Counted from the first letter of the stretch, positions 39,832 through 40,306 are shown. The stretch: DNA of 64,000 nucleotides from Escherichia coli (GCF_002854065.1 NZ_CP024147.1); one strand, 5' to 3'. Numbers and translations are program-made. Notes: generated by a model from the sequence alone, not told the origin.

Positions 39832-39919
39832 GTTATGCGTTAAGGTTGAGGCGGCGCTGGCTCATTCCCCTCAGCCCGAAGGGGAGAGGGGAATGCCCGA
39901 GTTAACCGTCAATTCGGGA

Positions 39920-40306
39920 TTATTTACGCGTTAGTTTTTCCAGATCGGCTTCAATCTCGCTGATCTTATTGGTTACGACTGACTCCAGGTGACGTAAGTC
40001 GTCGAGGATCTTACGCTTAAGATCAACTTCGCTGCGGTCACGCTGACAGATTTGATCAAGCTCATCAATGATATACCGTAGATTCGGGCTGATTTCCTGG
40101 ACTTCTTTATAACCCTGACCCACACCATCAGCGACGACCGTTTTACGCTGACGCGGATATTTAAACTTAACGCTCTTGGCGAAAAACTCGCCTTTGTCTT
40201 TCTGGAAATAGATTTTCAGAATATCGTTGTTGGCTTCCTGCCGGAGGCTGTAACGATCAATTTCTTCAGGATTGGTAATACCCAGACTTTTCAGATTGTC
40301 GTACAT
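39920..40306 (-). CDS. yaeH: UPF0325 protein YaeH
   Basis: 128-aa ORF recognised as YaeH. Confidence 0.88.

Follow-up and report, generated by a model that had tools for sequence, protein, structure and literature searches.

A hairpin related to BoxC between the convergent genes cdaR and yaeH of Escherichia coli, and the 3′ end of the yaeH mRNA

The short spacer in which cdaR and yaeH of Escherichia coli converge contains a stable inverted repeat with no annotation of its own, and the question it raises is what this repeat is and what, if anything, it does to the two transcripts that run into it. An initial annotation, made on a 64,000-nucleotide stretch of E. coli DNA (GCF_002854065.1 NZ_CP024147.1; hereafter the window), read the repeat as a member of a small dispersed family serving as a bidirectional terminator. 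We followed up that reading with profile searches, comparison of the spacer across genomes, and published maps of RNA 3′ ends.

The cdaR/yaeH spacer and its two hairpins

The arrangement of the locus is as the initial annotation had it: cdaR (plus strand, end at 39831) and yaeH (minus strand, end at 39920) converge on an 88-bp spacer (39832-39919), the strictly intergenic home of the hairpins. Adding 143,789 to a window coordinate gives that of K-12 MG1655, the window and K-12 spacers aligning without gaps. The 351 bases around the hairpin have matches in 5,424 of 5,426 complete E. coli genomes and are 100% identical in several strains, O157:H7 isolates among them. The features of the locus are the following.

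38674-39831, plus strand: cdaR coding sequence, convergent with yaeH (K-12 182463-183620).
39863-39895, minus strand: main hairpin, 33 nt, with a 10-bp outer stem, a 2x2 internal loop, a 3-bp inner stem and a 3-nt loop.
39896-39918, plus strand: second, weaker hairpin, CCCGAGUUAACCGUCAAUUCGGG, followed on the plus strand by AUUAUUUACG; a candidate intrinsic terminator for cdaR.
39920-40306, minus strand: yaeH coding sequence, for a DUF3461 protein; its mRNA ends at the hairpin, with a 59-nt 3′ UTR.

Both structures proposed for the spacer are present. The main one pairs CATTCCCCTC (39863-39872) with GAGGGGAATG (39886-39895), and within it CCC at 39875-77 pairs with GGG at 39881-83 to close a GAA loop; GGGGAGAGGGG lies inside the hairpin at 39881-39891. 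Read on the yaeH (minus) strand, the hairpin is CAUUCCCCUCUCCCCUUCGGGCUGAGGGGAAUG, which corresponds to the pyrimidine block, loop and one purine block of a BoxC element. The second small hairpin is CCCGAGTT-AACCGTC-AATTCGGG (39896-39918; -8.6 kcal/mol on the plus strand and -6.8 kcal/mol on the minus strand), and its 3′ arm, which is the 5′ part on the minus strand, overlaps the left flank of the BoxC relic.

The fold of the main hairpin is strong on either strand (-22.4 kcal/mol on the plus and -21.8 kcal/mol on the minus strand), 33-nt hairpins of equal or greater stability form at just three further places in the 64-kb window, and the folding z-score of the 114-nt region is about -2.4. Nevertheless, block-shuffled sequence reached -20 to -23 kcal/mol in three of three trials, and the energy of the hairpin is thus by itself only suggestive. 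What is decisive against chance is homology together with the mapped RNA end, not the fold energy.

The main hairpin was also said to share a core with the hairpin upstream of mrcB, and it does: GGGAGAGGG is found at 20945-53 (minus strand), 20957-65 (plus strand) and 39882-90 (plus strand), that is, three times in the 64-kb window against 0.2 expected from shuffles. The K-12 core reads GGTAGAGGG owing to the substitution G39884T, which breaks GGGAGAGGG; the core is therefore not invariant even inside E. coli. Position 39884 is one of three at which the window and K-12 spacers differ, the others being 39901 and 39912. All three lie inside the two hairpins, and each fits pairing on the plus strand only, through G-U wobble, which may hint that the plus-strand RNA (the cdaR 3′ UTR) also constrains the spacer sequence.

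All 5,424 matching genomes are covered by three alleles of the spacer (A 66%, B 33%, C 1%).

Allele A: 88 bp, window 39832-39919; 3,565 genomes.
Allele B: 53 bp, with a sequence unlike that of A (L001 433-485); 1,784 genomes, including ATCC 11775 and a Nissle derivative.
Allele C: 114 bp (L002 1633-1746), B-like with an added segment of about 55 bp; 75 genomes.

The E. albertii spacer is B-like. Simple insertion or deletion of the hairpin was considered as the source of this polymorphism and rejected, the non-A alleles replacing the whole spacer with no precise excision. The segment of about 55 bp in allele C (L002 1655-1712, strain AHB3) occurs at 80-90% identity at one to five other places in most E. 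coli genomes, so it is another dispersed repeat, and it may be akin to the middle portion of ERIC/IRU. Across seven A-type alleles, 90% of the cells of the stem are paired and four pairs are altered on both sides, and the observed covariation values are attained by 9 to 38 of 500 shuffles. The pairing thus lends modest support to structural constraint on the stem.

Descent of the main hairpin from a BoxC element

The BoxC repeats of enterobacteria are the PIT elements of Hoyne and Maher and the TMECO of Holder et al. (2015, PMC4666352). The latter authors give 23 TMECO elements, formerly BoxC or PIT, for MG1655, with the consensus CCCTCGCCCC-TTT-GGGGAGAGGG-TTA-GGGTGAGGGG (PMC4666352); there is none at 183.6 kb among those 23. 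Two of them form an inverted pair at K-12 164,547-164,631, just upstream of mrcB (PMC4666352), at the site of the hairpin with which the cdaR/yaeH repeat had been compared.

20941-20967, no strand assigned: mrcB-upstream hairpin in the hrpB/mrcB spacer, CTCCCTCTCCCTGTGGGAGAGGGGA; what is left of two full BoxC elements in inverted orientation.

Compared with K-12, the window strain has a 64-bp deletion here between two direct GGGAGAGGG repeats, which leaves a simple two-block hairpin. Searched with a query across this hairpin, E. coli genomes have a median of 4 matching places each, and at most 10. Being the K-12 BoxC pair minus 64 bp, and dispersed, the comparison hairpin is therefore a true BoxC derivative, and the deletion is a textbook case of the repeat-mediated instability known for BoxC elements.

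Two profiles were used to ask how the cdaR/yaeH hairpin itself relates to the family. With the 23 published K-12 elements as the basis of a covariance model, the top match in the window is 39890-39868 on the minus strand (14.8 bits, E 0.036, model positions 1-23), on par with the mrcB remnant at 14.6 and 14.1 bits. A flank-inclusive HMM (nhmmer) was built from 18 BoxC copies with flanks from 13 K-12 loci, all elsewhere than cdaR/yaeH, and across the whole window (128 kb searched) it has matches at two sites and no others: the mrcB site (E 2.5e-6 and 4.6e-5) and, on the minus strand, 39904-39868 (14.0-14.2 bits, E 0.0014).

39868-39904, minus strand: BoxC-profile-aligned stretch, model positions 7-43, comprising left flank, pyrimidine block, loop and purine block; envelope 39848-39909.

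The block pattern of BoxC, CCCTC(T/G)CCC(C), a loop of 3-4 nt and GGG(G)AGAGGG, is found in the main hairpin, its purine block being GGGCTGAGGG, with two mismatches. Of the BoxC flanks (approximately, left ..GAGCnC..GGTC, right GAACAGGCC.GCAC, in an element of about 56 bp), the left aligns in the window at model positions 7-20, and the right aligns only in sister-species orthologues, up to model position 64. The third BoxC block, GGGTGAGGG, which lies 3 nt past the second, is absent from the window and from K-12, neither alignment going beyond model position 43. With that block gone, the intrastrand triplex proposed for BoxC is impossible for the cdaR/yaeH copy, and triplex formation was ruled out as an explanation of it. 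Taken singly, the E. coli copy is a marginal BoxC match (E 0.0014 to 0.08); the argument for homology depends on intermediates in sister species.

Such intermediates were sought in 80 yaeH loci from other species. From these we extracted 70 yaeH/cdaR spacers, cdaR not being adjacent in the other 10. Matches of A-type spacers to the BoxC HMM are listed here.

E. whittamii: 28.6 bits, E 8e-8, model positions 6-64; both flanks and three blocks, without the 6-nt linker.
Escherichia sp. MOD1-EC7003: 25.2 bits, E 9e-7.
Escherichia sp. E1V33: 19.2 bits.
E. coli RMDEC465: 15.1 bits.
E. coli, present window: 14.2 bits; K-12: 9.3 bits.

The third block is present in the E. whittamii and MOD1-EC7003 orthologues but fused, its linker gone, and the E. 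whittamii left flank, GCTCGGGCAGTCCCCTC, is a close match to a K-12 BoxC flank, ACTCGGTCAGTCCCCTC. A-type spacers differ by gaps of 6 nt and 12 nt that fall exactly between tandem purine blocks, the pattern expected from slippage between repeats. From the graded A-type series and the placement of these gaps it follows that the E. coli hairpin is one BoxC insertion minus its third block.

More distant relatives have palindromes of other kinds, as well as BoxC, in the same spacer (downstream of yaeH, at about 1888-2030 of loci L004-L083). Full BoxC elements are found there in Enterobacter cloacae, E. asburiae, E. soli, E. sichuanensis, Pseudocitrobacter, Silvania and others (E 1e-13 to 2e-8), Pseudocitrobacter having two inverted full copies. 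REP-like palindromes occupy it in Citrobacter, E. hormaechei, Kosakonia and others, and plain terminator-like GC hairpins with U-tails in Atlantibacter, Buttiauxella, Siccibacter and Mangrovibacter.

How far the claim of a small dispersed repeat family stands can now be said. The main hairpin and the mrcB-upstream hairpin are both BoxC derivatives, but the family is the known BoxC/PIT/TMECO family, and the copy at cdaR/yaeH is a single-copy relic of it. Dispersed copies are a property of the family as a whole, with its 23 TMECOs in MG1655; the cdaR/yaeH variant itself has one place per genome when 5,426 E. coli genomes are searched by blastn, whether the query is the 88-bp spacer or the 43-bp hairpin. 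On that count we rejected a family of near-identical copies.

The same searches returned about 98 extra weak matches at E of about 7, and the one inspected is a different BoxC-type hairpin between gldA and yijF. In strain fS10a (L087 151-179) it reads as a two-block hairpin, CCCCCTCTCCCCAAAGGGGAGAGGGG, with flanks GTTTTTC... and ...GACTGTTCGAGCAC that are close to those of the mrcB-upstream remnant. Judging by this case, several loci seem to carry BoxC derivatives of the two-block kind.

In sum of likeness, the cdaR/yaeH copy has the pyrimidine block, short loop and purine block of BoxC (CCCTCTCCCC-TTC-GGGnnGAGGG), a similar left flank and the strain-to-strain instability of the family. It is also intergenic, and 4 of the 13 examined K-12 BoxC loci lie between genes annotated as convergent. 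It differs in having neither the third purine block nor the linker, in the two mismatches of its purine block and in being single-copy. REP/BIME (PU) elements, which act as mRNA 3′-end stabilisers, are likewise small palindromic intergenic repeats found after genes, as here, but their sequence family is unrelated, and the window allele does not contain the REP consensus, GCCGGATG...CATCCGGC. An E-value-mode Rfam scan of 39000-41000 returned nothing relevant; its best match, to sroE at the dapD terminator, reaches 21 bits where the gathering score is 51.

The ends of the yaeH and cdaR transcripts

RNA 3′ ends of MG1655 have been mapped by Term-seq (Adams et al. 2021, PMC7815308, Supplementary file 1), and the map contains a strong end at the foot of the main hairpin.

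39860 (K-12 183649), minus strand: dominant yaeH RNA 3′ end by Term-seq (PMC7815308), 3 nt past the foot of the main hairpin.
39763-39862, minus strand: C-rich, G-poor stretch of 100 nt, of which 36 are C and 14 are G, running antisense to the 3′ end of cdaR; candidate Rho loading region.

The end at 183649 has three entries in the curated list, a file whose tabs each stand for a growth condition; the two scores displayed, 70,972 and 131,285, are comparable to the dapD terminator, and its flanking sequence is given as ...CATTCCCCTCTACCCTTCGGGCTGAGGGGAATGAGC^CAGCGCCGCC (PMC7815308). The pipeline of that study labelled it "antisense cdaR"; we relabel the published peak as the 3′ end of the yaeH mRNA, where it closes the 59-nt 3′ UTR. 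An Hfq-type 3′-UTR sRNA was also considered and set aside, the end having no U-tail and the UTR being just 59 nt long.

On the minus strand, 66 nt downstream of the 3′ end, the same study places a Rho termination region, at K-12 183583 or window 39794 (Rho score 5.05, p 1.9e-7; PMC7815308). Upstream and downstream DirectRNA-seq reads number 56 and 13 in untreated cells and 99 and 116 with bicyclomycin (PMC7815308). The downstream/upstream ratio thus rises from 0.23 to 1.17 under Rho inhibition, a figure to be read with two features of the data in mind, namely that the DirectRNA-seq counts in the 800-nt windows are low and that the downstream signal could be inflated by antisense transcription, which bicyclomycin releases as well. 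On the yaeH strand the C/G ratio, 1.43 for the cdaR antisense as a whole, is 3.0 in the first 50 nt past the hairpin and 2.57 in the first 100 nt.

These properties are those of a class of ends described by Dar and Sorek (2018, PMC6061677), in which Rho-dependent transcripts have precise steady-state ends just past stable stem-loops without a U-tract; the stem-loops, with rut sites directly after them, shield the RNA from PNPase and RNase II. At yaeH, too, the stem-loop is stable (-21.8 kcal/mol on the yaeH strand) and has no U-tract, a steady-state end lies 3 nt past it with C-rich, G-poor sequence just beyond, and read-through is bicyclomycin-sensitive. The difference is that the stem-loop here comes from a repeat element and not from locus-specific sequence. 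Rho-sensitive read-through combined with an end at a hairpin that has no U-tract fits Rho termination followed by trimming. A hairpin-dependent pause, or partial termination independent of a U-tract, may also be at work.

The idea of a bidirectional terminator is not borne out. The main hairpin has neither a downstream U-tract nor an upstream A-tract on either strand, the next bases being CCCGAGTTAACC on the plus and AGCCAGCGCCGCCT on the minus strand; termination is sensitive to a Rho inhibitor; and a 3′ end is found on one strand only. The spacer resembles canonical and bidirectional intrinsic terminators in having a GC-rich hairpin between convergent genes, but differs from them in the missing tracts and in its Rho sensitivity. 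Mapped 3′ ends were to decide the matter for both transcripts, and in the Term-seq data (PMC7815308) the yaeH end is indeed at the hairpin, but no plus-strand end, as would belong to cdaR, lies between K-12 183680 and 183729. Poor expression of cdaR under the Term-seq conditions is probably the cause of this absence. A terminator scan flags the second hairpin only, and on the plus strand only, and the K-12 substitutions in that hairpin keep pairing through G-U on the plus strand only. From its sequence, the second hairpin with AUUAUUUA looks like the sole candidate for a cdaR terminator, acting one way.

Allele B of the same spacer differs from A in this respect. In the yaeH sense it has GGCCGGGTAAAGTCTCACCCGGCT and then GTAATTTTGT, a hairpin and U-rich tail that together count as terminator-like in the scan. 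E. coli lineages therefore appear to end the yaeH mRNA by different means.

Earlier tests found PIT elements to be without promoter or terminator activity, according to the summary in PMC4666352. The portion of the SMRT-Cappable-seq results used here has a full-length dapD-b0165-yaeI-yaeH transcript; that portion gives neither a cdaR unit nor an end coordinate for the dapD-to-yaeH transcript. TERMITe supplements have no yaeH or cdaR entries, and a text search for yaeH, cdaR and terminator returned nothing relevant.

Elsewhere at the locus, the degP/cdaR spacer has a hairpin after degP, CCCCTTCC-TGAAAAC-GGGAAGGGG (38522-38556), with a Term-seq end at K-12 182347 on the plus strand (window 38558) for which the published table gives an intrinsic-terminator score of 5.4 as well as a Rho score of 4.6. 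The BoxC covariance model matches this hairpin weakly, at 7 bits, which we take as chance.

Our preferred reading, to which we give a probability of about 0.68, is that the main hairpin is a decayed BoxC element and that the yaeH end arises by Rho termination followed by exonuclease trimming back to it. A BoxC element would have inserted into the yaeH/cdaR spacer in an Escherichia ancestor and would have lost its third purine block through small deletions between tandem GGGnGAGGG blocks, leaving a plain, very stable pyrimidine/purine hairpin. RNA polymerase coming from yaeH, whether from yaeH alone or by dapD-yaeI-yaeH read-through, would traverse this hairpin; Rho would load on the C-rich untranslated RNA just past it and terminate transcription within the cdaR antisense; and 3′-to-5′ exonucleases would trim the heterogeneous ends back to the hairpin, giving a discrete, protected end 3 nt past its foot. 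The hairpin may thereby stabilise the yaeH mRNA. Of this account, the place and strength of the 3′ end, its response to a Rho inhibitor, the homology and the anatomy are observed, whereas the trimming, the stabilisation and a part for the second hairpin and its U-rich tail in ending cdaR are inferred. One third of E. coli genomes are without the element, and any such benefit is therefore dispensable.

Three other explanations compete with this one in whole or in part. Were the hairpin itself to halt polymerase arriving from both cdaR and yaeH, as an intrinsic terminator would, one could point to a stable GC-rich hairpin placed centrally in a convergent spacer, to the yaeH 3′ end 3 nt beyond it and to the adjoining terminator-like hairpin with its U-rich tail on the plus strand. 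We think this improbable given the lack of a U-tract on either strand of the main hairpin, the rise of the read ratio from 0.23 to 1.17 with bicyclomycin, the missing plus-strand end at K-12 183680-183729 together with a scan that flags only the second hairpin on the plus strand, and the inactivity of BoxC/PIT elements as terminators in the summary of PMC4666352. It is more improbable still, to the point that we give it very little weight, that the hairpin is specific to the locus and owes its GGGAGAGGG likeness to chance convergence of a G-rich stem. Its single-copy status by blastn in 5,426 genomes, the 9 to 15 bits scored by the E. coli copy and the mutated K-12 core would all suit such an origin; set against them are the sister-species orthologues that align to BoxC over both flanks and three blocks (E 8e-8 and 9e-7), the restriction of profile matches in 128 kb to this site and a true BoxC remnant, and an E. 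whittamii left flank so near to that of a K-12 BoxC.

The remaining explanation, unlikely in our view but deserving some weight, accepts the origin and doubts the use: the element would be a neutral DNA relic, an unstable, recombination-prone repeat of non-B DNA, and the RNA end an incidental by-product of its stable hairpin. BoxC loci are hypervariable between strains (PMC4666352), the spacer has three unrelated alleles (3,565, 1,784 and 75 genomes), the element has decayed by deletions and point mutations, the K-12 core included, and the mrcB copy has lost 64 bp between repeats. Yet the stem has been preserved, with some pairs changed on both sides, although the triplex block is gone, and the yaeH 3′ end ranks among the strong ones in the Term-seq dataset. 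Neutrality is in any case compatible with the 3′-end mechanism proposed here and disputes only selection on the hairpin. With Rho termination and trimming at a decayed BoxC as the preferred account, the cdaR/yaeH hairpin is overall an ordinary feature, well explained by known biology.

BoxC-type hairpins and mRNA 3′ ends

To our knowledge, BoxC elements have since the 1990s been investigated solely as motifs of DNA triplexes or of instability, with no function assigned to them. Holder et al. (2015, PMC4666352) treat them purely as DNA structures, with no mention of mRNA or of transcription of the elements, and a search of literature text for BoxC with mRNA and exonuclease found no paper tying E. 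coli BoxC to RNA ends. The cdaR/yaeH relic is not alone in its position, however. In the Term-seq data, ends lie 3-4 nt past other BoxC-type hairpins at K-12 847200 (minus strand), 3781065 (plus strand, lldD), 3959467 (minus strand) and 4231270 (minus strand), and about 11 nt past two more at 632098 (plus strand) and 624567 (minus strand) (PMC7815308). Counting the cdaR/yaeH relic, at least seven BoxC-type hairpins have a dominant 3′ end 3-11 nt past the foot in this one dataset; against these seven coincidences, a rough estimate of the expected number is a few tenths for the whole genome, or about two if ends are taken to be intergenic only. At least two of the elements, those at 847200 and 4231270, are degenerate copies that do not appear in the list of 23 TMECOs.

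A wider idea can be offered tentatively, and at somewhat less than even confidence: BoxC elements as a class might be 3′-end hairpins for Rho-terminated mRNAs, and the occurrence of BoxC, REP and terminator hairpins in one spacer might imply selection for some 3′ hairpin there, with mobile repeats as interchangeable suppliers. If this were true, the A and B alleles of E. coli would represent a natural polymorphism between Rho-dependent and intrinsic 3′-end formation in one gene. Nothing here would surprise a specialist in bacterial RNA decay, and the link between BoxC hairpins and mRNA 3′ ends may be modestly new.

For annotation, the gain is that a previously unannotated hairpin finds its place in an established repeat family. 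With its three alleles, A, B and C, the spacer amounts to a natural experiment, in which different 3′ architectures can be compared for their effect on the expression of one gene. For the BoxC family, the finding points to a testable role at the level of RNA, namely protection of the 3′ end after Rho termination.
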